Below, piece after piece: positions 39,062-64,000 of a stretch of 64,000 nucleotides of DNA. Every line of letters begins with the position of its first letter. Positions within the stretch are counted from its first letter, which is position 1. The notes below the pieces were generated by a model. It was not told the origin of the DNA. It saw nothing but the letters and a program-made list of their open reading frames with translations, and ran no database searches. The DNA comes from a virus. The stretch spans positions 1 to 64,000 of IMG/VR virus record IMGVR_UViG_3300043313_002348, one strand, 5' to 3'. A program made the position numbers and the translations under genes.

Positions 39062-40429
39062 GTGCGCGTCGGGTACGCTAAGCTCGGGCAGCGCATCGCG
39101 CTCGGTGCGGGAGACGACTGGTCCTCGATCGGCAGCGACCGCGACGAACCTACCGTCCTGCGGCAACTCGCGCAGCGCAACCCGCATCACGAGTTCGTAC
39201 TCGTAGGAATGAACACGGGACCTCCTCTCGCCGACCTCGGATTTCCCTCGAACATCGTGAATCCGTGGGAGGAAGGTCTCCGCGGCGAGGTACGTGATGG
39301 TCTCGCCGTGGTGAGGCGTCAACACATGAACGGCGCTAAGGGTCTCACGCCCACTGGCCGGAACGAGGTCATTAGGCTGTACGACAACCTCACGGCACAC
39401 CTCTTCAAGGGTCTCGACGCTCTTGTGATCTGGGCGGGAACGCACGGCACCTCGAACTCACCTATGCCGGGTATCGTGAAGAGTACGCGCGGACGCTGGA
39501 CCTATCCGCAAGATCAGTACGTCACGTACGGCGCGTACCTCCTGCGTGGCATAAGCGTCTGGCGTGAACCTGATCCCCTCGGCCGAGAGGAGATCTGGCT
39601 CTGCCCCGACGCGCGTAACATACTTAAACATCACGACGCGAAGTGGCCTCGTCGTCACCCCGTCCTCGGCCAGTTTAACCTCCGCTACCGCTCGGTGTGC
39701 TGCCGTTACGGGGACGAACGTGAACCCGAGGCCTGTGGCTTCCCAGACGCGCGGTGGCACTCCGGACGTGATTACTGGGTCGCTACTGACACGTATGTCG
39801 GCTCGACGTTGGAGATCTGCGGGGTACACCCGGGAAGTTTTGAGGGTGGCTACGCGTGGCATGACCGCTGCCGGTTCGGCATGTTCGTCAACGAAGCCGG
39901 GACGAACGTGCCGGATTACCTGAGCCGCAAGGTGGCCCTGCGTGACTGGGTACTCCCACTCGGCTACGACTGGCTTCACGGAAACTGGACCACGCGATCA
40001 CTTACCGAACTGGGTGTGAGCATCGAACCCGCGCCTACCGCGGACTACTACCCCATCCTCTGCTCCGCGCGGTCGACGTTCACCACGCCGTCGTCCGGGT
40101 CGGGGTGGGCGACCGCGAAGCCGTGGGAGGCGTTCGGCGTCCGCACCGTCTGCTTCTTTCATCCCGAGTACGATACCCAGGGTCACATTATTCCGACACT
40201 CGCGCAGGTCGAGGCGGGTACAGTGGAAGACGTCGAGCTCGCGCACCTCGCGCGCTGGCTTCGGGTCAGCACGCCCGAGCAGCTACGCGAGCGGGTCGAC
40301 TGGGTCAACCGGGATGAAGGTGTGTGGTCCTGGCTCACTCAAGCACAGTACAATCTGTTCAGGCGTACGTACGACGCGCGGCCTTACCTGAGGAAGATCG
40401 AGGAGAGAATTAGTGGGAAAGCATCGTGA
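39062..40429 (+). CDS. DNA glycosyltransferase, T4 beta-glucosyltransferase-like (GT-B fold)
   Basis: C-terminus TAKPWEAF...HPEYDTQGHII...RVSTPEQLRERV...AQYNL parallels the T4 BGT C-terminal pattern as recalled (TLRVWE...EEFDTKHRII...ELIDRV...IQHDIL). Confidence 0.7.
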   Translation: MRVGYAKLGQRIALGAGDDWSSIGSDRDEPTVLRQLAQRNPHHEFVLVGMNTGPPLADLGFPSNIVNPWEEGLRGEVRDGLAVVRRQHMNGAKGLTPTGRNEVIRLYDNLTAHLFKGLDALVIWAGTHGTSNSPMPGIVKSTRGRWTYPQDQYVTYGAYLLRGISVWREPDPLGREEIWLCPDARNILKHHDAKWPRRHPVLGQFNLRYRSVCCRYGDEREPEACGFPDARWHSGRDYWVATDTYVGSTLEICGVHPGSFEGGYAWHDRCRFGMFVNEAGTNVPDYLSRKVALRDWVLPLGYDWLHGNWTTRSLTELGVSIEPAPTADYYPILCSARSTFTTPSSGSGWATAKPWEAFGVRTVCFFHPEYDTQGHIIPTLAQVEAGTVEDVELAHLARWLRVSTPEQLRERVDWVNRDEGVWSWLTQAQYNLFRRTYDARPYLRKIEERISGKAS

Positions 40430-41570
40430 TAGTTCGTTGAAGTTCGCGCTGATCACCACCACCGTTCACGTGCCGAAGAACCTTCACGCGTGGACAGCGT
40501 TCTTGCGTGACGGAGATCTGATCGTGGTTGCCGGGGACCTGAAGACACCTCACGAGGAGGTTATCGCACTCCTCGACGACGTCACGCGACCTCATCCGAA
40601 ACTCACGGCTCGCTACCTCAGTCCTACGCGTCAAGATACCATGTACCCGCTGCTGTCGGAACTCACCGGGTGGAACACGATCCAGCGGCGGAACTTCGCC
40701 ACACTCTACGCTCTTCAGCTAGGTGCTGACGTCATCATCACCGTGGATGACGACAACTGGCCTACCACTGACGCCCTCGACCACGCCGACGAGTTCCGCG
40801 CCCAGTTCACCGACGACGCCGTCGTACCACTCCTCGACGGCGGTGACTGGTACAACCCGTGTCACGTCTTACTCGTTCAAGGTCCGACCGAGCTCATTCA
40901 AGGTGCACCTCAGTTTAGGCGGCTCTGGCACCGCGGGTTCCCGCGCTGGCTACGTGAGTCGTACGTGCCGGTGGTCTACCCGATCACGCCAGATCCATAT
41001 CTGGAGACGGGACGTGTCGGCGTCGTCGCCTCACTCTGGCTCGGCGACCCGGACGTCGACGCGCTGGACCGACACCCGGTTGCACTCCGCGTCAACTACA
41101 ACTCGATTCCCGAAACCGACCGAAACGTCACGATCAACTCGCGAACCACGTGGGCCCCGTTCAACTCGCAGGCTACCGCGTTCCGCGCCGAGCTCGCACC
41201 TGCCCTACTCTACTGGCCACACGTGGGTCGGTACGACGACATCTGGGCGTCGTTCATCGCGCAGAAGATCATGTCGACCTACGACCTCCACGTGTCGTTC
41301 GGACACCCGGTCGTGGAGCAGCAGCGAGGTGAACACACCGAACGTGACTTCACCGCGTTCCTGAACGACCTCGAGAACGAGATCTTCGGCATGAGGCACA
41401 ACCGCGAGGTGGTCGAGGCGATCCGCACCTGGACCGCCGACCCGACGTTGAGCATTCTCGAGAACACCGAGCGGCTGTTCTACCACGTCGCCACGACGTG
41501 CGACTTCATACCTGACTCGACGGTCAAGATCTTCGACGAGTGGCTGCGAATCTTCAAGGCGCTGTCGTGA
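40413..41570 (+). CDS. RGP/STELLO (GT75)-like nucleotide-sugar mutase or glycosyltransferase
   Basis: AGDLKTP, RRNFA.LYA, TVDDDN, HRGFP, WLGDPDVDA, PFNSQ and GRYDDIWA. Confidence 0.75.
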   Translation: MGKHRDSSLKFALITTTVHVPKNLHAWTAFLRDGDLIVVAGDLKTPHEEVIALLDDVTRPHPKLTARYLSPTRQDTMYPLLSELTGWNTIQRRNFATLYALQLGADVIITVDDDNWPTTDALDHADEFRAQFTDDAVVPLLDGGDWYNPCHVLLVQGPTELIQGAPQFRRLWHRGFPRWLRESYVPVVYPITPDPYLETGRVGVVASLWLGDPDVDALDRHPVALRVNYNSIPETDRNVTINSRTTWAPFNSQATAFRAELAPALLYWPHVGRYDDIWASFIAQKIMSTYDLHVSFGHPVVEQQRGEHTERDFTAFLNDLENEIFGMRHNREVVEAIRTWTADPTLSILENTERLFYHVATTCDFIPDSTVKIFDEWLRIFKALS

Positions 41571-42484
41571 TGAGGGCCGTCGTCACAGGTGATCTCGGGT
41601 TCCTAGGTCGTCACTTCACACGTAAGTTGAAGGCGTGTGGTTTCGACGTCCTCGGCGTGGACGTCAAGCGTGGTGGCATGCGGACGAACGACTGCCGCTA
41701 CCTCTTCAACACGTCGACGGACCGGTACGACCTCGCGATCCACGCCGCCGCGGTGGTCGGAGGTCGTGAGGCCATCGAGGGGAGACCCCTCGACCTCACC
41801 GTGAACTTCGACCTCGACCTCGCGTATATGAGGTGGTTGTTAGCCACGCGTCCTCGCCACGCGGTGTACTTCTCGTCGTCGGCGGTCTACCCGATCACGC
41901 TGCAAGACACCGACCTCGTACCGCGACAACTCTGGGAACACGACCTTAACACGGTGAAGTACGTGGGTGTGCCGGACGAGATCTACGGGTGGACGAAGCT
42001 GGTCGGCGAGGAGCTCATGCGCCGCGTACGCGACGCCGGGGTCGACGTCACGGTGGTGCGACCGTTCAGCGGCTACGGCGCGGATCAAGATCTCACGTAC
42101 CCGTTTCCTACGTTCATCCGGCGCGGACTTGCCTGCGCCGCGGATCCGGAGTTACCCTTCGACGTATGGGGACCGGGAACTCAGGTACGCGACTTCGTTC
42201 ACGTCGACGACGTGGTAGCAGCGACCCTCAACGCCGTCGCACGTCCCGACGTGCAGGTGACCAACGTCTGCACCGGGATCGCCACGAGCTTCGTCGACCT
42301 CGCGCGCGAGGTTCTCAAGCAGGTGGCTCCCACACGGGAGCCAAACCGGATCGTAACCCACCCCGCTAAGCCTACCGGCGTCGCGTACCGCGTCGGCTCT
42401 CCGCGGCAGATGTTCAAGTTCTACGCACCGAAAGTATCACTACCCGAGGGAATCACGAGTGCGCTGGAGGTAAGTCGTGGTTGA
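41567..42484 (+). CDS. NAD-dependent nucleotide-sugar epimerase/dehydratase (extended SDR)
   Basis: VTGDLGFLG, FSSSAVY, YGWTK and RDFVHVDD. Confidence 0.9.
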   Translation: MMRAVVTGDLGFLGRHFTRKLKACGFDVLGVDVKRGGMRTNDCRYLFNTSTDRYDLAIHAAAVVGGREAIEGRPLDLTVNFDLDLAYMRWLLATRPRHAVYFSSSAVYPITLQDTDLVPRQLWEHDLNTVKYVGVPDEIYGWTKLVGEELMRRVRDAGVDVTVVRPFSGYGADQDLTYPFPTFIRRGLACAADPELPFDVWGPGTQVRDFVHVDDVVAATLNAVARPDVQVTNVCTGIATSFVDLAREVLKQVAPTREPNRIVTHPAKPTGVAYRVGSPRQMFKFYAPKVSLPEGITSALEVSRG

Positions 42485-42968
42485 GTTCGACGTCGTGGAC
42501 CTATCCGATTCCGGTTGGCAGTGGCTCAAGTCCACCGCGGACCTCCAGCGCGACACGTACGGGTACGACCTCCCGATGCCACCTGGCGAGAAGATCGCCA
42601 ACTACGCTGTGATGAATCACACCGCGGGTGTGAAGGAGTTCGGCGAGCTACTCGACGAGTTCGGGTGGAAGCCGTGGGCGTCACCACGAGGCTGGTTCAA
42701 CCGTGAGGCCGCACTGAGTGAGGCCGTCGACGTCGCGCACTTCCTCGCGAACATACTCGTGGCGATCGGCGTCACCGACGAGGAGTGGGAACTCGCGTAC
42801 CGAATGAAACAAGAGATGAACCGACGACGTCAGCGCGCTGGCTACACCGGCCGCGACAAGTGTCGCTCCTGCGGTCGCGCGTACGACGATCCCACCACAC
42901 GCTGCCGGCTCGACTCGGACTACTGCCAGGACGCGGCCACTCACGCGACGCGCAACACATTCGCCTAG
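42477..42968 (+). CDS. All-alpha dUTPase/dCTPase
   Basis: KEFGELLDEFGWKPW, EAVDVAHF and K.EMNRRRQ.AGY. Confidence 0.82.
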   Translation: MVEFDVVDLSDSGWQWLKSTADLQRDTYGYDLPMPPGEKIANYAVMNHTAGVKEFGELLDEFGWKPWASPRGWFNREAALSEAVDVAHFLANILVAIGVTDEEWELAYRMKQEMNRRRQRAGYTGRDKCRSCGRAYDDPTTRCRLDSDYCQDAATHATRNTFA

Positions 42969-43011
42969 TACGGTTAGATCGACGACGAAAGCGCCTACTT
43001 GGGGGTCATCA

Positions 43012-44223
43012 GTGAGTCTTACGGCGATCGACTGCCAGGGCTTCGCCGGCGGGTTCACCCTAGGAACCGTCAAGGCGGGCTTCGAGCTGGTCGGTAAGCG
43101 TGAACACACCGGTGGCTTCGGTGTGAAGAACTGCGAGGTGAACCGCGCTCTTCTCGGTGACAACTGGTACTCGCAAGCAGGTGAGGCATACACCTGGCAT
43201 CCTATGTCTGTGGACCTGGTGTTTGGCAACCCGCCGTGCTCCGGCTTCTCCGTGATGTCCAACAAGGACTTTCGCGGCATGAACTCAAAGATTAACTCGT
43301 GTATGTGGGACTTCTCCGGGTTCGCGGCGCGCTGCCGGCCACCTATCGCGATCTTCGAGTCTGTGCAGGCGGCGTACAAGCAGGGTCGTGATCTCATGGT
43401 CGCGCTGCGCGCCAACCTCGAGGAGCGGACCGGACTTCGCTACGACCTGTATCACGTGCTTCACAACGCGACGACGCTAGGTGGCCCGGCTGTGCGGCGT
43501 CGATACTTCTGGGTTGTCTCGGCGATCCCGTTCGGTGTGGAGTATCCCGAGCGTCGTCCCCCGATCCTGCGTGAGGTGATCGGCGACCTACTCGACACGC
43601 CACTCACGTGGACGAGTCAGCCGTACCGGAACCCCCCGACGTGGTGGTCCGAGCGCGTGCGTACGACTACGGGTACGGTCGACGGGCACACTTACGCCGA
43701 CGTTCCGTACGTCCGGCGCGCGCTCGATCTCCTCGAGCAACTGGGCGGTTGGCCCGAAGGATCACATATTGGCGCGGAGGCGAAGCGTGCGTGGGAACGT
43801 GACGGTAAGCTCCCACCGTCGTGGGATCACATCTGCGCTAAGTTGGTCGAAAATAAGTTTGAGATGGGATACACAACACTCACCCGCTGGCGTTGGAACA
43901 CGCCAGGTCGTGTGATCACGGGTGGTGCGATGCAGCTCGCGATGCACCCACTCGAGAACCGAACGTTTACCCACCGCGAGGTCGCCCGCATCATGGGGTT
44001 CCCGGACACCTGGCGGATCCTTCCACTTCGCGGGACTCCAGGTCTGGGTATGACGTGGGGTAAGGGCATCACGGTGACCTGCGGGGAGTGGATCGCGGGT
44101 CTCGCACGGCGCGCGCTAGCGGGACGACCGGCATCTTACCGTGGGAAGTTGATCGGGGATCGCGAGTACGAGGTGGACGAGATCTCCGCACGGCAGTTTG
44201 CTCGTAGTCACGTAGCCTGCTAG
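43012..44223 (+). CDS. DNA cytosine-C5 methyltransferase-like protein
   Basis: DCQGFAGG (variant motif I), GNPPCSGFS (IV), FESV (VI), RRRYF (VIII), RE.ARIMGFPD (IX) and GKGI (X). Confidence 0.82.
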   Translation: MSLTAIDCQGFAGGFTLGTVKAGFELVGKREHTGGFGVKNCEVNRALLGDNWYSQAGEAYTWHPMSVDLVFGNPPCSGFSVMSNKDFRGMNSKINSCMWDFSGFAARCRPPIAIFESVQAAYKQGRDLMVALRANLEERTGLRYDLYHVLHNATTLGGPAVRRRYFWVVSAIPFGVEYPERRPPILREVIGDLLDTPLTWTSQPYRNPPTWWSERVRTTTGTVDGHTYADVPYVRRALDLLEQLGGWPEGSHIGAEAKRAWERDGKLPPSWDHICAKLVENKFEMGYTTLTRWRWNTPGRVITGGAMQLAMHPLENRTFTHREVARIMGFPDTWRILPLRGTPGLGMTWGKGITVTCGEWIAGLARRALAGRPASYRGKLIGDREYEVDEISARQFARSHVAC

Positions 44224-44687: not shown

Positions 44688-44791
44688 CCTGAAAAATCTT
44701 GGGCAAACCTAGGCAAACCTGTAGCTCGATCACATTAATCCTGCTAGAGTAGACGTATCAGGAACGAACGAGAACGAGGAAGGGAACCACG

Positions 44792-47191: not shown

Positions 47192-47265
47192 GCCCCCTTA
47201 GCCCAGTTGGCAGAGGCAGAGGACTTAAAATCCTCACAGCGTGGGTTCAAGTCCCACAGGGGGCA
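47192..47265 (+). tRNA. tRNA-Leu, anticodon UAA
   Basis: GCCCCCT/AGGGGGC acceptor stem, GAGGA-CTTAAAA-TCCTC anticodon arm, GTGGG-TTCAAGT-CCCAC T arm; no encoded CCA. Confidence 0.92.
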
Positions 47266-47301
47266 CGAGGTAAGATCGGATCGAATCTTAGGAGATCAAG
47301 G

Positions 47302-58232: not shown

Positions 58233-59369
58233 GTGACTGAAACCACCACTCCCACTGAGCTGCCCACGCGCACGTTCACGAGCCGGCAGGCCCCGTGGAT
58301 GACCGTCGGCCACGTCATCGACGAGCCGGACGTGGACTCCCAGACCGCCGCTCGCCTGGGTGGTCTGGACTTCGACGTGAAGTTGTACCCGGCCGGGTTC
58401 CGGGTCGGCGACGCCCTCGACGCGGAGACCGGTGAACTTCCCGGCGTTCTACCGCAAGGTGAGATCGCCAAGCTGGCCGACGAGGTCGGGAAGGCTCCGA
58501 ACGCGGAGGCCATGCGTAAGTTCGGTCGCCGGGTGCCCGAGCTGCTGGCGCACATCGCCGCGCTGTCCGGTCACACCGCGACCGACGCGAGGTGGGTGGC
58601 GTTTCACGGCCGCAACGCCGTGGTGAACGAGACGACCCAGATGCCGTACGACGTGGTGTCCGGTGACTACGTGCCCGTGCAGTTCAGCGAGGCGTTCACG
58701 TTCATGGACGCGGTCAACCCGCGCTACGTCGCGGCCGGCACTCTTAAGGGTGGGCGGCAGGGATTCATGGTCGCGCAGCTCTCGGAGCTGACCTCGCTCC
58801 AGCTCGACGGCCTCGGTCCCGACGGCGACTCCGACCCGCATGACATGTTCGCCGTCCTGCGAACGAGTCACGACCGGTCGCGTGGTCTCGAGGTGGCGCT
58901 CATGGGCCTGCGACAGCGCTGCATGAACTCGCTGGGTCTCCGCTCGTTCACGCGCGGCGCGCCGCAGCGGTGGTCGATCCGGCACGTCGGCGACGTGGCC
59001 TCGAAGCTGCAGGCCGCCCAGCAGGTCATCACCAATATGACCAACTACGCCGCCGAGTACGAGCGTATGGCGCGTCGGCTCGCGGAGACCGAGGTCCTCC
59101 TCAGCGACGCGGAGGAGATCCTGACTCACGCGCTCGAGGACCGACCGACCCGGGAGACGACCGTGAACTCCATCATCTCCGCGTGGAACTTGAGCCCGTA
59201 CGTGGGCTTCAAGAACACCGGCTGGGGGCTCACGCAGGCTGTGTCCGAGTACTTCGAGTGGGGGCGTGACACGAACGTCCGCACGGACCAGTCGCGATTC
59301 CTCGGGGTGCTGGAGGGATCGACCGCGAAGGCCGTGAACCGGGTGGCGCAACTGGTGATGACGCGCTAA
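58233..59369 (+). CDS. DUF932-family phage/plasmid protein
   Basis: GGLDF.V, Y.PVQ..EAF, AG.LKGGR, TSHD.S, RC.N and TGWG..QAVSEY. Confidence 0.8.
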   Translation: MTETTTPTELPTRTFTSRQAPWMTVGHVIDEPDVDSQTAARLGGLDFDVKLYPAGFRVGDALDAETGELPGVLPQGEIAKLADEVGKAPNAEAMRKFGRRVPELLAHIAALSGHTATDARWVAFHGRNAVVNETTQMPYDVVSGDYVPVQFSEAFTFMDAVNPRYVAAGTLKGGRQGFMVAQLSELTSLQLDGLGPDGDSDPHDMFAVLRTSHDRSRGLEVALMGLRQRCMNSLGLRSFTRGAPQRWSIRHVGDVASKLQAAQQVITNMTNYAAEYERMARRLAETEVLLSDAEEILTHALEDRPTRETTVNSIISAWNLSPYVGFKNTGWGLTQAVSEYFEWGRDTNVRTDQSRFLGVLEGSTAKAVNRVAQLVMTR

Positions 59370-59457: not shown

Positions 59458-59721
59458 ATGGACGAGTTCGACGAGCTGTTCAAGGTTGTGAACGTCAGCG
59501 CCGAAGATATCACGTTCGAGCGTGGTGGTGGCATCACCCGACGCTACCGCATCACACTCGAAGGTCAAGGAGGCCACGGGATCGGACTCACAGGTCTGAT
59601 CGTGTACACGTACGTCAACGCTGACAGCTTGAACTCGACCGTGCAGGGGCGGGCGTGTCAACACCTCCTGGAGGCGTACGCCGACGACGCCGCTACGTCG
59701 ACCAGCGGCGGTGCCAAGTGA
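59458..59721 (+). CDS. Hypothetical protein
   Basis: RBS and GTGA overlap with the next gene. Confidence 0.5.
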   Translation: MDEFDELFKVVNVSAEDITFERGGGITRRYRITLEGQGGHGIGLTGLIVYTYVNADSLNSTVQGRACQHLLEAYADDAATSTSGGAK

Positions 59722-60200
59722 TCTCCGCGGAGGAGGACGTGGAGACCTCCGAGACGGACGACAGAGATGATCCGGTCGCGTGGATGAGTCGTCCGGCTCC
59801 CTTCGGTCCGGCGTGTCGCGCCGCGCCCGCGGGTCTGTTCTTCACCCCAGACTACTTCTACGCCGACGAGGTAAAACCCGGTGAGCGTCCCGTGCGCGAC
59901 TCACGTGGTCATCTCATCGAGTACGACGAGGACGGCGAGCGGATCTACCCACTCCCCGAGGAGTCGGTGTTCTGCCGGGCGTGTCCGGTTCACACCGAGT
60001 GTCTCGCCTACGGGATCACGACCGACCAGCCGGGTGTGTGGGGTGGCATGACGCGGTACCAGCGTCGGCAGCTCGGTCGCCGCCGCACGCGCGTGTCGTG
60101 TCCATCTTGCGCGGGTAGGTTCATCGTCGTGGAAGGATCACACCAGCTCTGCCTCGCCTGCGGGGTGTCGTGGACGTACGTGAGAAGTGGTGTAAGATGA
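59718..60200 (+). CDS. WhiB-like protein with internal insertion and C-terminal zinc ribbon
   Basis: AC...LFF, FCRACPV..ECL, GVWGGMT..QR and CPSC...CLACG. Confidence 0.78.
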   Translation: MISAEEDVETSETDDRDDPVAWMSRPAPFGPACRAAPAGLFFTPDYFYADEVKPGERPVRDSRGHLIEYDEDGERIYPLPEESVFCRACPVHTECLAYGITTDQPGVWGGMTRYQRRQLGRRRTRVSCPSCAGRFIVVEGSHQLCLACGVSWTYVRSGVR

Positions 60201-60511
60201 CGAACATCCCGTCTCACACCGCGTCCGACGAGGAGAGGTGGATACTCGAGGTCACGTTCGACCCACCTAATGTGCAGGCACACGCCAATCCTGAACTTAC
60301 GTTTCCTTATGATGAGGTAAGTCGATTTGTGACGTACCTCTCCGAGTACTGGAGTCTTCTTCCCGAGGAACTCCAAGAGTTTGTGCGGTGGGATAACGTG
60401 AAGTTAACCGCGACGGCCGAACTGATCGACAACTTCGTCGAACCTCTTCGCTTTCTCATGATGCATATGGTGCCCCAGGAGTTCACTTTAAGGCGTGCTG
60501 GTGCACGTTAG
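60197..60511 (+). CDS. Hypothetical protein
   Basis: ATGA overlap with the upstream gene. Confidence 0.5.
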   Translation: MTNIPSHTASDEERWILEVTFDPPNVQAHANPELTFPYDEVSRFVTYLSEYWSLLPEELQEFVRWDNVKLTATAELIDNFVEPLRFLMMHMVPQEFTLRRAGAR

Positions 60512-60599
60512 GTAGTGAGTTAAGACACCGCGGGTGGCTCCCGCTACGATCGCGGTATAGGAGAGAAATCCGAAGGAACTAGGAAGGGAGAACGTTAAG

Positions 60600-61637
60600 A
60601 TGACCGAGATCGACTTTGACCCGATCGCGCGACTCAGCCGCGAGGCGCGCGCGATGGCGGTCGGCATCGACCGCGACGCGGCCAGGTACCTCGTGGACAC
60701 GTACTACAGGTGGCAGCGGCAGCGGATCGCGTTGGGAAACCAGGTGCGGACGCTGGAGAACTCCGGACAACCTACGGGAGTGCTGGAGCACTTCGGCGAC
60801 CAGACCGCGACACTCGAGCGGCAGATGATCTCCAGCTTGCTGGCGTGGGTCGAAGATCGACCCGAGGGAAAGTGGGCGCTCGGCCAACTGGGGATCGGAC
60901 CCGTTCTCGCCGCCGGCCTGTCTGCACACATTGACATCCGTAGGTCGCCGACCGTCGGCCACATCTGGCGGTTCGCCGGACTCGACCCGACACTCACGTG
61001 GCTGGGTCGCGACGCCGCTACCGCTCTCGTCGCGGAGATGTTCGGAACGCAGCGATCGTTCACGCCGGAGGACGTCGCCACGCTCGCCGAGCGGGTGAAC
61101 CGCAAGGCCGAGAACCTCCTCAAGATCATACGCGACGCACCCAGCGACGAGGACGAGGACGTCGCGCTGACCGAGGACGAAGACGAGGTGTTCCCGCGCA
61201 GCCGCGTGATCGCGACCCTCGCCCGGCGCCCGTACAACGCCAGTCTCAAGGTGTTGTGCTGGAAGATCGGCGACTCGTTCGTGAAGATCTCGAACCGACC
61301 AACCGACCAGCAAGACCACTACGGTCGTGTGTACCGCGAGCGGAAGGCGCAGGAGGTGGCGCGTAACGAGGCCGGCGCGTTCGCCACGACGGCCACTCAG
61401 ACCCTCGCGACGAGGCGCATTACGGACGTCGCGCTGCGACGTACGTACGAGGAGGGTAAGCTCCCTCCGGGGCGTCTGGACCTGCGCGCGCGGCGGGTAG
61501 CGGTCAAGCTGTTCCTGGCACACTGGCACGACGTCGCATATCGCGCCGAGTTCAACACGCCGCCACCGGCGCCGTACCCGATCGCGCATCTCGGGCACAC
61601 TCACTACATCCCGCCGTTCGCACCTAAGCAGGGGTAA
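60600..61637 (+). CDS. IS110/Nop-domain protein lacking the RuvC domain, TasA-like RNA-guided DNA-binding protein
   Basis: Coiled coil YLVDTYYRWQRQRIALGNQ, GIGPVLAAGL, IWRFAGLDP, YNASLK and ARRVAVKLFL; no DEDD or HNH domain; repeat array directly downstream. Confidence 0.8.
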   Translation: MTEIDFDPIARLSREARAMAVGIDRDAARYLVDTYYRWQRQRIALGNQVRTLENSGQPTGVLEHFGDQTATLERQMISSLLAWVEDRPEGKWALGQLGIGPVLAAGLSAHIDIRRSPTVGHIWRFAGLDPTLTWLGRDAATALVAEMFGTQRSFTPEDVATLAERVNRKAENLLKIIRDAPSDEDEDVALTEDEDEVFPRSRVIATLARRPYNASLKVLCWKIGDSFVKISNRPTDQQDHYGRVYRERKAQEVARNEAGAFATTATQTLATRRITDVALRRTYEEGKLPPGRLDLRARRVAVKLFLAHWHDVAYRAEFNTPPPAPYPIAHLGHTHYIPPFAPKQG

Positions 61638-61639
61638 CC

Positions 61640-63080
61640 GGTCGAGCCACGAGAACCGCGATAGTCTAGTGAGACATAAGAGTCGACGAGAACCTAGTTA
61701 GGGATCGAGTCGTACGTGTAGAGAGAACCGGTTGATAAAGAACGAGTCGTAGTTGTAGAGGAAACTTTTCCATCGACGAACGAGCCAGCCGATCAGTGAG
61801 AACCGTGATGCCCAATCGAGACGCATTTGATGGTGAGAACCTTATCTTGAGATCGAACCGAAGTGGTTAAGTGAGACAAAGAGCCCGACGACGGTAACGT
61901 AATGATAGATCGAGACGTGGAACAAGATTGTAACGCTTGTGGTTCGGATCGAGACGAAGAGTTTGACTGTGACGTACAACAGGGATCGAGACGAAGAGTT
62001 AGATGGTAACGCAACTCACGAGATCGAGATGAGAGTAAAGAGAGATCTGTACAAGCTGATCGAGATGAGCTACTTGACAGTTCCACTTTAGTCGATCGAG
62101 TCAAATCGAGACGAAGTACAAGATGGTAACACGCGCAAGTGATCGAGACGTTTGACCCGGACCGTAACGCGATCATGAGATCGAGACCGAAGAGACCGAC
62201 TAGGTACCCACTACCATGAGTGAATCGAGAGATAAGTTAACATCGTTTATGCCGAATGAAGACCTTGTCCCCATCACTAGTGAACCGCACGTAGATGATC
62301 GAGGCAATGCGGAAGAGAGAACTGATCAGAGCGATCGAGACGACATCAGTAAGAGAACCGTACCAGATGATGATCGAGGCGAAGCAAACGGCGAAAGAAC
62401 CGTATCTCATGATCGAGACGATGAAGATAAGAGAACCAAAGTATCAGGTCGAGACACATAGGAATAAGATAGAACCGACGTATCCGATCGAGACGATTCT
62501 AGTAAGAGAACCGAACGACGCGATCGAGACACACGTGAGAAAGAGAATCGACAGATGAGATCGAGACGAAGCTCTCGAAAGTGAACCTAAGAACTTGATC
62601 GAGACGGACGTAAACTTGGGGAGAGCACCGGAGTAGGGATCGAGACGAAGGGATCGAAGAAGATTCGATAAACGAGATCGAATCCGAGGTAAAAAACGTG
62701 AGACGACCGTCATAAGAGAACCGTACTAAGTGATCGAGCGCTAATGAAGTAAGTGAGCCGGAGATACAGATCGAGACACTTCTTCGGAGCGAGATGGAAT
62801 GGAGCTAGTGAGCCGACACTCCAGATCGAGTCGTACAGAGTGAGAGTTACCACGTCTGAATGAGCGAGTCGCAAGTACCTGAGAAATACCGGAAAAGTAA
62901 ACGAACCGTAGCACGAGTAGGCATTCATAACCCCTGTGAGTGAGTCAAAGTCAACGGGTGTCAAGAGAGCCAACTACCCGAACGTGGACGTGGATACGAA
63001 CCGAAGATCACAAGAGTACCGATCCGCACGAGTGAGTCGTGGATCTCACGAGAGAACCGAACACCTCAAACGAGATCGCG
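61640..63080 (+). ncRNA. TIGR-like tandem interspaced array (dual repeat, dual spacer, ~36-41-nt units)
   Basis: GATCGAGACG-like repeat at 61908, 61947, 61984, 62022, 62058, 62094, 62141, 62179, 62297, 62333, 62372, 62411, 62447, 62486, 62522, 62559, 62597 and 62638, alternating with AAGAGAACCG or GAYNGTAACG; variable ~8-11-nt spacers. Confidence 0.8.
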
Positions 63081-63119
63081 TGAAACCTGCGCCAGGACAT
63101 CTGGCGTGGGTTCTCGCGC
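63078..63119 (+). terminator. Hairpin closing the array
   Basis: Imperfect stem ACCTGCGCCAG / CTGGCGTGGGT. Confidence 0.45.
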
Positions 63120-63267
63120 ATTCTAAGACGACGTCGTGATTCAACGTCGTGCCGCGTGACGGTCACTCCGCTGAAGTGAGCTCAAGTGGCCGATGTTTCT
63201 TGTTGCACTGTGATGTGACTTATGCTAGTCTAGTCGTAGCAGGTAAGGAACGAGGAAGGGAAGTACG

Positions 63268-63447
63268 ATGAACCCGATCACCGTCCAGGTCTACCGAAGC
63301 CTCTCCGTCACCGACCTCGGCACCCAGATCTTGCAGATCGAGCGTCAGAACGCACAGGATGTCAGGCGAGGTCGTCGGGTGTCCGCCCACTCCGCCCAGG
63401 TGCTCAGCACCGCGAAGTCGATCTACCGCGAGCGCACCGTGCGCTGA
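63268..63447 (+). CDS. Small hypothetical protein (59 aa, not in ORF track)
   Basis: Promoter at 63203, GGAAGGG RBS and open frame MNPITVQVYRS... Confidence 0.55.
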   Translation: MNPITVQVYRSLSVTDLGTQILQIERQNAQDVRRGRRVSAHSAQVLSTAKSIYRERTVR

Positions 63448-63602
63448 CCACCGCCGCCACTAACAGAAGAAGGTAGGTCATCTGAGGAGGTGGCCCATCT
63501 TCCGCACATCGAGGTCCTCGACGCGGTTGTGACGTGCTCGGCCACACCTATCGTACGCTAGTGGACGACATATCCGTCACACCTCACGTGAGGACTCACA
63601 TC

Positions 63603-64000
63603 GTGGCTCGACCCGTCCGCGTCGTCTCAGGCTGGACCCTCGGTGGGGGCGGCCGCGTGCGTGAACTGATTACGCTGCCGTGGTGGCTGATCGTGTTAGG
63701 ACGCGTACTGCGGTGGTTCGGCGTCAGCCACCCCCTCCTAACGGCGGACGGCGTTGGCGTCGTGTACGTGTGGATCAAGACGGGAAGCCTGGCGCTCGCG
63801 CTGGCGACGGTAGCTGTGGTTGACGTGGCGTTGCTAGCCTGCCTGATCGCGGTGCTACTGCGCCTCACCGGCGCGAGTCTGAGCGCGATCATAGCGGGCA
63901 TGTCAAGGCGACGTCAACTACGGAGACAGTGGCCGGACGTAGCGGCGGCCGCCGGCCTGGTACGCACCGTCAGGGGCGACCAGGCCTACCCGCCGCTCAG
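63603..64000 (+). CDS. Membrane protein, partial (runs off right edge)
   Basis: GTG with GAGG RBS; hydrophobic segments, then RRQWPDVAAAAGL. Confidence 0.5.
   Translation, partial: MARPVRVVSGWTLGGGGRVRELITLPWWLIVLGRVLRWFGVSHPLLTADGVGVVYVWIKTGSLALALATVAVVDVALLACLIAVLLRLTGASLSAIIAGMSRRRQLRRQWPDVAAAAGLVRTVRGDQAYPPL

Follow-up and report, generated by a model that had tools for sequence, protein, structure and literature searches.

Organization of the tas locus

The window analyzed here is a 64,000-nucleotide (nt) stretch comprising positions 1 to 64,000 of the 82,914-bp virus record IMGVR_UViG_3300043313_002348 (IMG/VR), which carries direct terminal repeats. Toward its end, on the plus strand, lies a gene for a 345-residue protein (60600–61637), designated tasA here, whose product is a nuclease-free TIGR-associated Nop-domain protein. 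An array of short alternating repeats and spacers, 1.44 kb in length, begins on the same strand 2 nt past the tasA stop codon, and a hairpin with an 18-bp stem (63078–63119) closes it. This open reading frame (ORF), the alternating design of the repeats, the closing hairpin, and a TIGR-Tas-like assignment of the whole had been proposed in an initial annotation made from the letters of the DNA, and all four stand in the present analysis. We conclude, with a probability of about 0.85, that a soil actinobacteriophage here carries a dual-repeat TIGR-TasA system that is complete in itself.

Identification of the protein as TasA

The NCBIfam equivalog model NF052498 (TIGR_Tas_endo, "TIGR-Tas system RNA-guided endonuclease") matches the protein with 163.3 bits (E = 7.5e-48), above its cut-off of 100 bits, and the match spans residues 28–313 of TasA and positions 1–214 of the 215 in the model. 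PHROG 4285, labeled "transposase", also matches (E = 3.4e-38). In Pfam, the only match at E ≤ 10 is Transposase_20 with 19.5 bits, which is under the cut-off of 21.3 bits, and no DEDD_Tnp_IS110, RuvC-like, or HNH domain is found at that threshold, in agreement with the initial description of a protein lacking RuvC and HNH. The Tas model is preceded by just 27 residues, and no more than 13 further in-frame codons are open upstream; the protein thus has no nuclease domain and is of the TasA type. The third-position G+C content of the gene is 0.85. PADLOC gave no match for the four proteins tested.

The initial annotation had suggested a structure and profile comparison as a check. As a single sequence, TasA matches 9MTY chain A and TasH weakly among the solved structures. 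A family profile of 24 members (alignment A1) matches TaTasR (9MTY) with E = 1.3e-18 and TasH with 5e-9, and IS621 with only 0.026. The match to TaTasR begins at residue 121 of that protein, past its RuvC domain, and spans the coiled coil and the Nop core as well as the GH..YI.PP loop near the C-terminus. The coiled coil and the Nop core of TasA correspond to approximately residues 28–313. The structures nearest to the predicted model of the TasA sequence (Atlas, predicted template modeling score 0.78) are viral clusters labeled transposase, and the template modeling score to an IS110 cluster is 0.44.

Tyr326 and His333, located in the C-terminal loop of TasA, form a putative pair for guide maturation. 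In SpTasH, the catalytic pair for this step consists of Tyr289 and His296 (PMC13421893), and these residues align with Tyr326 and His333 of TasA, with an equal spacing of seven residues and both pairs in an LGHT motif. The SpTasH sequence was that of the tasH gene located in Salicola phage CGphi29 through the accession in PMC13421893. Tyr326 and His333 are invariant in the seven sequences of alignment A2, and among the 24 of alignment A1 His333 is invariant and Tyr326 nearly so. A Tyr/His pair marks dual-repeat systems and is missing in stem-loop ones (10.64898/2026.09.09.750476).

An insertion of 74 residues (135–208), absent from the short-form relatives (270–290 residues), consists of a partly conserved A.R.NRK...L stretch followed by an acidic run. 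It is positioned where the TasR alignment leaves about 15 residues, suggesting that it may occupy the site of the short strand-separating wedge loop of TasR. The initial annotation had placed this insertion at the site of the catalytic Ser loop of IS110. This position is partly supported: the IS621 alignment stops at IS621 residue 240, immediately ahead of the insertion, and the nucleophile of IS621 is Ser241. Judging from all these sequence comparisons, the protein is a genuine nuclease-free member of TIGR-Tas, of the TasA subtype.

Architecture of the array

The region behind the tasA stop codon (61638–63140) has a purine content of 61.9% on the plus strand (A 502 and G 429 of 1503) and a G+C content of 49%, against 62% in the genome. 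The longest ORF in any frame has 127 residues and lies on the minus strand, and the plus-strand frames are broken every 50–90 codons, bearing out the initial description of about 1.4 kb of purine-rich non-coding DNA. When one mismatch is allowed, the window contains 38 copies of GATCGAGACG, whereas 14.9 are expected and the richest of 100 shuffles has 26; 20 of the 38 copies are found at 61703–62833, all on the plus strand. The density of GATCGAG is 14.4 per kb in the array and 0.34 per kb outside it, a 42-fold difference, and the minus strand of the array has no copy of it.

A position-weight chain model, in which a half-unit is a 10-nt repeat plus a spacer of approximately 8 nt, gives 74 half-units, that is, about 37 units, between 61649 and 63077; the first estimate had been roughly 35–40 units. 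The 73 half-unit steps include 34 of 18 nt, 12 of 19 nt, 7 of 20 nt, and 7 of 21 nt. With up to two mismatches per repeat, 27 edge repeats and 25 loop repeats are recognized, and 14 complete units (edge-spacer-loop-spacer-edge, with each repeat within this limit) can be assembled from them; we call these strict units. No strict unit was found elsewhere in the 82.9-kb genome when both strands were scanned. Tandem Repeats Finder detected nothing in the array, and Rfam gave no match at E ≤ 1. A CRISPR array was considered and rejected, since it would have a single repeat of about 25–36 nt and spacers of similar size, whereas here two 10-nt repeats alternate and the spacers are only about 8 nt long.

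The array can be divided into four blocks, all on the plus strand. Block 1 (61640–61889) is degenerate; its edges include GATCGAGTCG and GAACGAGTCG, and its loops resemble GAGAACCG. In block 2 (61890–62188), the edge GATCGAGACG alternates with a second type of loop, GA[CT]NGT[AG]AC[GA], present in six copies. A repeat-poor stretch (62189–62277), where the half-unit scores do not exceed 3.6 bits save one at 7.9, divides the array in two. Block 3 (62278–62675) is the best-formed part and contains 9 of the 14 strict units; here the edge GATCGAGACG is followed by a spacer of 8–11 nt, the loop [AG]AGAGAACCG, and an 8-nt spacer. Block 4 (62676–63077) is again degenerate, with edges GAGCGAGTCG or GAGTGAGTCG and loops AGTGAGCCG or GAGAACCG; the alternation of edges and loops slips in this block, and a partial edge, AAACGAGATC, terminates it.

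The ends of the repeats are largely conserved. Edge repeats start with G in 25 of 27 copies and have A next in 26 of 27, and their last two bases are C (24/27) and G (21/27). Type-2 loops keep GA....ACG in five to six of the six copies, and type-1 loops end with CCG in 16–19 of 20. By analogy with the characterized systems, we infer that the shared ends, GA on the 5′ side and CG on the 3′ side, may be equivalents of box D and box C, a pseudo-symmetry that would suit binding by a protein dimer. The spacers have a G+C content of 42% (62% in the genome), and A makes up 46–51% of their first two positions. No two of the 74 spacers are identical, and two pairs differ by one base.

Linkage of the array to tas genes in related loci

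A search with the single TasA protein as the query returned no relatives, and an alignment query was needed. The family comprises at least 2,210 proteins at E ≤ 0.001 among 8,000 scored. With the alignment query, 499 of 597 candidate stretches of IMG/VR encode relatives; 80 viral loci were kept for comparison, 35 related loci came from genome assemblies of many phyla, and the locus-wide tests use 115 loci. In 51 of the 80 viral relatives, at least five copies of one 7-mer with a spacing of about 36 nt adjoin the gene, and 282 of 391 pooled single gaps are exactly 36 nt. When a generalized edge repeat was used, periodic repeats were found on the tas strand in 57 of the 115 loci and on the opposite strand in none. 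None of nine neighboring genes recurs in the 115 loci and the arrays sit beside tas, so the gene and its array travel as a two-part module.

The edge repeats of these loci covary. In 52 of 58 loci, the majority bases at edge positions 3 and 8 can pair, with three Watson-Crick types (G-C in 37, A-T in 10, and T-A in 3) and G-T in 2, though several of the 58 loci are near-duplicates and the counts accordingly overstate the number of independent events. Among pooled edge copies, 718 of 884 are able to pair at these positions, against 547 expected if the columns were independent. The T-A loci are that of the window, L035, and L050. In the window itself, the five commonest types at positions 3 and 8 (T-A 14, T-T 3, T-G 2, G-T 2, and A-T 1) account for 22 of 24 copies. 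An extra covarying base pair of the edge repeat is also seen in the TasR structure (PMC12045711). The covariation, as a pattern in aligned sequences, argues for a function of the repeats as RNA over one as DNA sites.

One of the relatives, L035 (IMGVR_UViG_3300032156_000001; 188,118 bp), has GATCGAG 59 times, on both sides of a TasA-related gene. It shares the rare T-A variant at edge positions 3 and 8 with the window, and its units are almost all 36 nt (18 of 19).

Unit length

Among the 14 strict units, just 3 have a length of 36 nt, and the others are 37–41 nt. The 36-nt unit quoted in the initial annotation is located at 62486–62521, but the 36-nt period proposed there for the whole array applies only to this minority of strict units, and about half of the array is degenerate. 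Guides of dual-repeat systems have been described as uniformly 36 nt (10.64898/2026.09.09.750476). In the well-formed units, the 8 nt that follow each repeat end are kept, and zero to six extra bases are found just before the next repeat. The relatives L044, L069, and L070 likewise mix units of 36–38 nt. In L057, L062, L065, L114, and L056, the unit length is strictly kept at 39, 38, 37, 35, and 35 nt, respectively. Unit length is fixed within most loci and differs between loci.

The irregularity could reflect decay of the array or a clade that is tolerant of variable guide length. That this TasA clade indeed loads guides of variable length, in view of the 36–41-nt units and the partly conserved 74-residue insertion, is a tentative idea that we regard as rather unlikely. 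If the 36-41-nt units were processed and used, the fixed 36-nt geometry would be no strict rule, and spacer length would be tunable. As for array size, 5–15 units are most common (PMC12045711), and 65,635 guides in 4,126 dual-repeat arrays give a mean of about 16 (10.64898/2026.09.09.750476). The array of about 37 units is long by this measure, yet longer ones exist among the relatives fetched here.

Putative transcription signals and a hint of expression

Upstream of tasA, a putative promoter on the plus strand (60522–60550) can be read from the sequence, with a −35-like AAGACA (60522–60527), a 17-nt spacer, and a −10-like TACGAT (60545–60550); it is below the threshold of the sigma-70 consensus scanner, which called nothing at the locus. 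The −10 region and the leader of tasA align with the upstream regions of the genes at 63268 and 44792. A leader or ribosome-binding motif, GGAACTAGGAAGGGA (60575–60589, plus strand), lies 11 nt ahead of the tasA start codon. This motif is found without mismatch at 60575 and 63247 and with one mismatch at 44771, and matches with up to three mismatches number 12 against 3.1 expected. The three leaders (44771–44785, 60575–60589, and 63247–63261) have the common form GGAAC[GT]AGGAAGGGA and a similar −10 region (GCTA..T.G.CGTA) upstream. These likenesses suggest that at least three genes, tasA among them, may be driven by one promoter class.

The closing hairpin on the plus strand follows the last repeat and has a 5-nt loop on its 18-bp stem. 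The predicted RNA fold of 63040–63170 has a free energy of −53 kcal/mol (z = −3.24), and a second hairpin is found at 63128–63150. A scan for terminators with a T run did not call the 63078–63119 hairpin, which is likely a terminator without such a run. Because of the shared promoter and leader motifs upstream and the hairpin at the end, tasA and the array look like one transcription unit. In addition, one 201-nt contig of a soil metatranscriptome is an exact match to 60576–60776, a weak hint that tasA is expressed; the array lies outside the span of this contig.

Search for guide targets in the phage genome

The 73 neighboring pairs of 8-nt spacers, in both edge-loop-edge and loop-edge-loop phases, were searched against the phage genome with the array masked. 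Spacer A joined to the reverse complement of spacer B, as the initial annotation had advised, the inverse order, and the same-strand joins A+B and B+A were tried, as were joins with zero to four free bases at the junction; the spacers were anchored either after the repeat or before the next one, and their first two A-biased positions were also ignored in some runs. In the phage genome, no guide pair matches exactly, and one matches with a single mismatch, against 0.3–0.5 in controls of shuffled order. When junction gaps are allowed, five and four matches are found in this genome against zero to three in the controls, and with 12 specified bases of 16 two are found against 1.55. A use of the system in self-regulation, one of the possibilities raised initially, is therefore unsupported, since no guide pair matches the genome above chance. 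In public collections, chance alone would give tens to hundreds of matches to any 16-mer. The guides are most likely directed against the host or against competing mobile elements, which is the part of the interpretation with the least certainty.

Proposed mechanism and alternative explanations

From the features above and by analogy with characterized systems, the following mechanism can be proposed. The tasA gene and the array would be transcribed together from the phage promoter just upstream. A TasA dimer would bind the precursor through the conserved GA...CG ends of both repeats, and the Tyr326/His333 pair would cut within each edge repeat to give guides of 36–41 nt. The two spacers of a guide would then pair with opposite strands of adjacent half-sites, as in PMC12045711, so that spacers A and B together cover a 16-bp site, where the nuclease-free complex may block transcription or replication without cutting. 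Precedents exist for two of these activities: a TasA binds 36-nt guides (PMC12045711), and for another TasA both reporter repression and a gel shift of target DNA are described (10.64898/2026.09.09.750476). In a further, more speculative reading, the guides would be active solely on host or rival DNA that lacks modification, as the phage carries genes suggesting that its own DNA is modified.

Several observations weigh against this interpretation. Edge-to-edge gaps of 36 nt make up only 4 of 14 (0.29), which is the lowest modal share among the 43 arrays having at least eight single-unit gaps, most of the others reaching 0.8–1.0, and about half of the half-units score poorly in the chain model. 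Among the viral relatives, 29 of 80 have no array by the crude 7-mer test. The majority bases at edge positions 3 and 8 are a non-pairing T-C in 6 of the 58 loci, in addition to the redundancy of those loci. The sole RNA contig is limited to the 5′ end of tasA and is possibly DNA carry-over, and no guide target above chance is present in the phage's own genome. The points on unit length and repeat quality would also fit a decaying TIGR locus, one in which tasA is intact and the array has largely drifted, so that a minority of the units or none would give working guides. All three repeats are within two mismatches in just 14 of about 37 units, 3 of them 36 nt, and the gap at 62189–62277 and the out-of-phase block 4 also fit such drift. 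However, the tasA frame is intact, with its high third-position G+C and all family-invariant residues including Tyr326 and His333; the extra bases are mostly placed directly ahead of the next repeat and the 8 nt that follow the repeat ends are kept, a pattern that looks tolerated rather than random; three relatives mix unit lengths similarly; and the spacers all differ. We consider decay improbable on these grounds, though it is the strongest of the competing explanations.

The repeats might instead act as DNA, as iterons or centromere-like sites of a replication or partition protein, with the Tas-like neighbor being incidental. The direct repeats at a spacing of about 18–19 bp, the G+C content lower than that of the genome, and the FtsK/SpoIIIE-like gene downstream are what such sites would predict, but arrays adjoin tas in unrelated contigs and keep to the tas strand, no neighbor gene is common to the 115 loci, and the covariation of edge positions 3 and 8 is that of an RNA pair; DNA sites would need neither a single strand nor a pair, and this explanation appears very improbable. 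Still less credible is a remnant of an IS110-family insertion sequence, that is, a transposase fragment with a non-coding bridge-RNA region. The weak Transposase_20 match, the "transposase" label of PHROG 4285, and the remote likeness to IS621 and to the IS110 cluster can be cited for it, whereas the Pfam score is under its cut-off, a DEDD or RuvC-like domain is missing, far better matches are given by the curated TIGR-Tas model and by the Tas structures, and a bridge RNA is a single structured RNA and not about 37 tandem units. Translation of the region as a repetitive protein, which the initial annotation had itself named as an outcome that would overturn its assignment, is hardly conceivable either: it has nothing but the periodicity in its favor, the ORFs are short and broken as described above, and variation of 1–5 nt in unit length would shift the frame. 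The TIGR-Tas reading, in contrast, accounts jointly for the NF052498 score above its cut-off, the ranking of TasR and TasH over IS621, the Tyr/His pair, the co-oriented arrays, and the covarying edge pair.

Genome, host, and neighboring genes

The genome has a G+C content of 62%. Its major head protein matches 877 deposited phages in a database search, and the ten genera named in the tally of these matches all belong to Actinomycetota, from which Actinomycetota can be inferred as the probable host phylum. Among deposited phages, neither megablast nor tblastn gave a match at 1e-5, and among 50,697 deposited phage genomes the relatives are limited to three weak matches (E ≤ 1) in Salicola and Microcystis phages; this phage lineage is hence absent from the cultured actinophage collections. 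Two soil metagenomes (X1 and X2) contain pieces of the locus, including the array, with zero differences from the window, at a depth of only 2–4 that makes uncovered parts of the array meaningless; they may be the samples from which the record derives. Two other sequencing runs (X3 and X4) hold small shares, and the pieces in X3 are mostly 90–95% alike and then diverge, indicating that they come from relatives.

None of nine genes around tasA has a homologue in the 115 related loci, while tasA itself has one in 114. Because no neighbor is conserved in these loci, we do not regard the FtsK/GIY-YIG gene downstream as a part of the system, nor an HNH gene located 3.8 kb upstream. The former (63534–64000, on to genome position 65306) encodes a 590-residue protein right after the array, with an FtsK/SpoIIIE-type ATPase domain (approximately residues 234–469), a C-terminal GIY-YIG nuclease domain (approximately residues 505–573), and an N-terminus of hydrophobic appearance; none of the 115 loci has such a gene next to tas. 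Just upstream of tasA is a WhiB-domain gene (59655–60200; Pfam, 40.6 bits), whose product has a long N-terminal extension and whose 3′ end overlaps the start of a 113-residue ORF. This ORF (60170–60511) has no match in Pfam, PHROGs, NCBIfam, or PADLOC.

Farther upstream, a 378-residue DUF932/TIGR03299 "phage/plasmid-like protein" (58233–59369) has the highest third-position G+C of the region (0.89). A NAD-dependent sugar epimerase, an all-alpha dUTPase_2-type protein, and a C5 cytosine methylase are encoded in a row at 41540–44223, and the two larger ORFs just upstream of this row (39062–41570) have no Pfam match. A single tRNA-Leu (47192–47266) with the anticodon UAA is encoded in this genome of 62% G+C.

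Comparison with known systems

The kind of system is already known (Faure 2025; Xu 2026 preprint; TasH structures; NCBI protein model), and a published catalogue of 20,096 tas loci may already include the one in the window (10.64898/2026.09.09.750476). We found no paper joining TIGR-Tas with actinobacteriophages. Actinobacteria are unmentioned in the covered parts of PMC12045711 and 10.64898/2026.09.09.750476, whose supplementary tables lie outside this scope and may list the contig; mycobacteria are absent from those of the latter and appear in one reference title only in those of the former. The TIGR-Tas family is young (2025), and the nuclease-free form is its commonest. The initial annotation had called the role of TasA unresolved; RNA-guided repression of a reporter by a TasA (10.64898/2026.09.09.750476) modifies that statement, which holds for the natural role.

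The closest counterparts are the dual-repeat systems of the FpTIGR/FpTasA type. FpTasA of Flavonifractor plautii (PMC12045711) is, like the protein in the window, a solo nuclease-free Nop-domain Tas without conserved associated genes. In systems of this type, as in the window, a same-strand array lies directly downstream, its unit of about 36 nt consists of two short repeats and two spacers, and the array ends with an incomplete edge repeat and a hairpin behind it (PMC12045711). The window differs from them in its spacers of about 8 nt (usually 9), its about 37 units (commonly 5–15), and its unit lengths of 36–41 nt (PMC12045711), and also, by description, in its two types of loop repeat and the 74-residue insertion that follows the AGLDP motif.

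SpTIGR-TasH of Salicola phage CGphi29 (9W03/9W04, PMC13421893) is phage-encoded like the window system and has the Tyr-x6-His pair in Y......LGHT. Its spacers total 16 nt (PMC12045711), implying 8-nt spacers as in the window. SpTasH, however, cuts DNA and begins with an HNH nuclease domain of about 70 residues, whereas TasA of the window has no HNH, and the identity between the two is 23%. TaTIGR-TasR (9MTY, PMC12045711) is the best match among the solved structures and has an edge repeat with an extra covarying pair, as in the window; it differs in its N-terminal RuvC nuclease of about 115 residues and in its boxes, UG and CCA, against GA and CG. MbTasA and catalytically dead TasR (10.64898/2026.09.09.750476) are nuclease-free RNA-guided repressors, the function proposed for the window; MbTasA originates from a Minisyncoccota bacterium. 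The IS110-family RNA-guided recombinases, represented by IS621 (8WT6), share the RNA-binding coiled-coil/Nop-like module with TasA, and the window differs from them in lacking both a DEDD domain and recombinase chemistry and in its tandem array, which stands in place of one bridge RNA.

The picture of what TIGR-Tas is does not change with this locus. It adds a complete 82.9-kb phage genome, circularly permuted or terminally repeated, with a full tasA-array unit and an inferable host phylum, and its irregular array provides a natural test of the constraint on guide length. Its peculiarities are the least regular unit length among the 43 arrays compared, the two loop types, the 74-residue insertion, and the actinophage setting.

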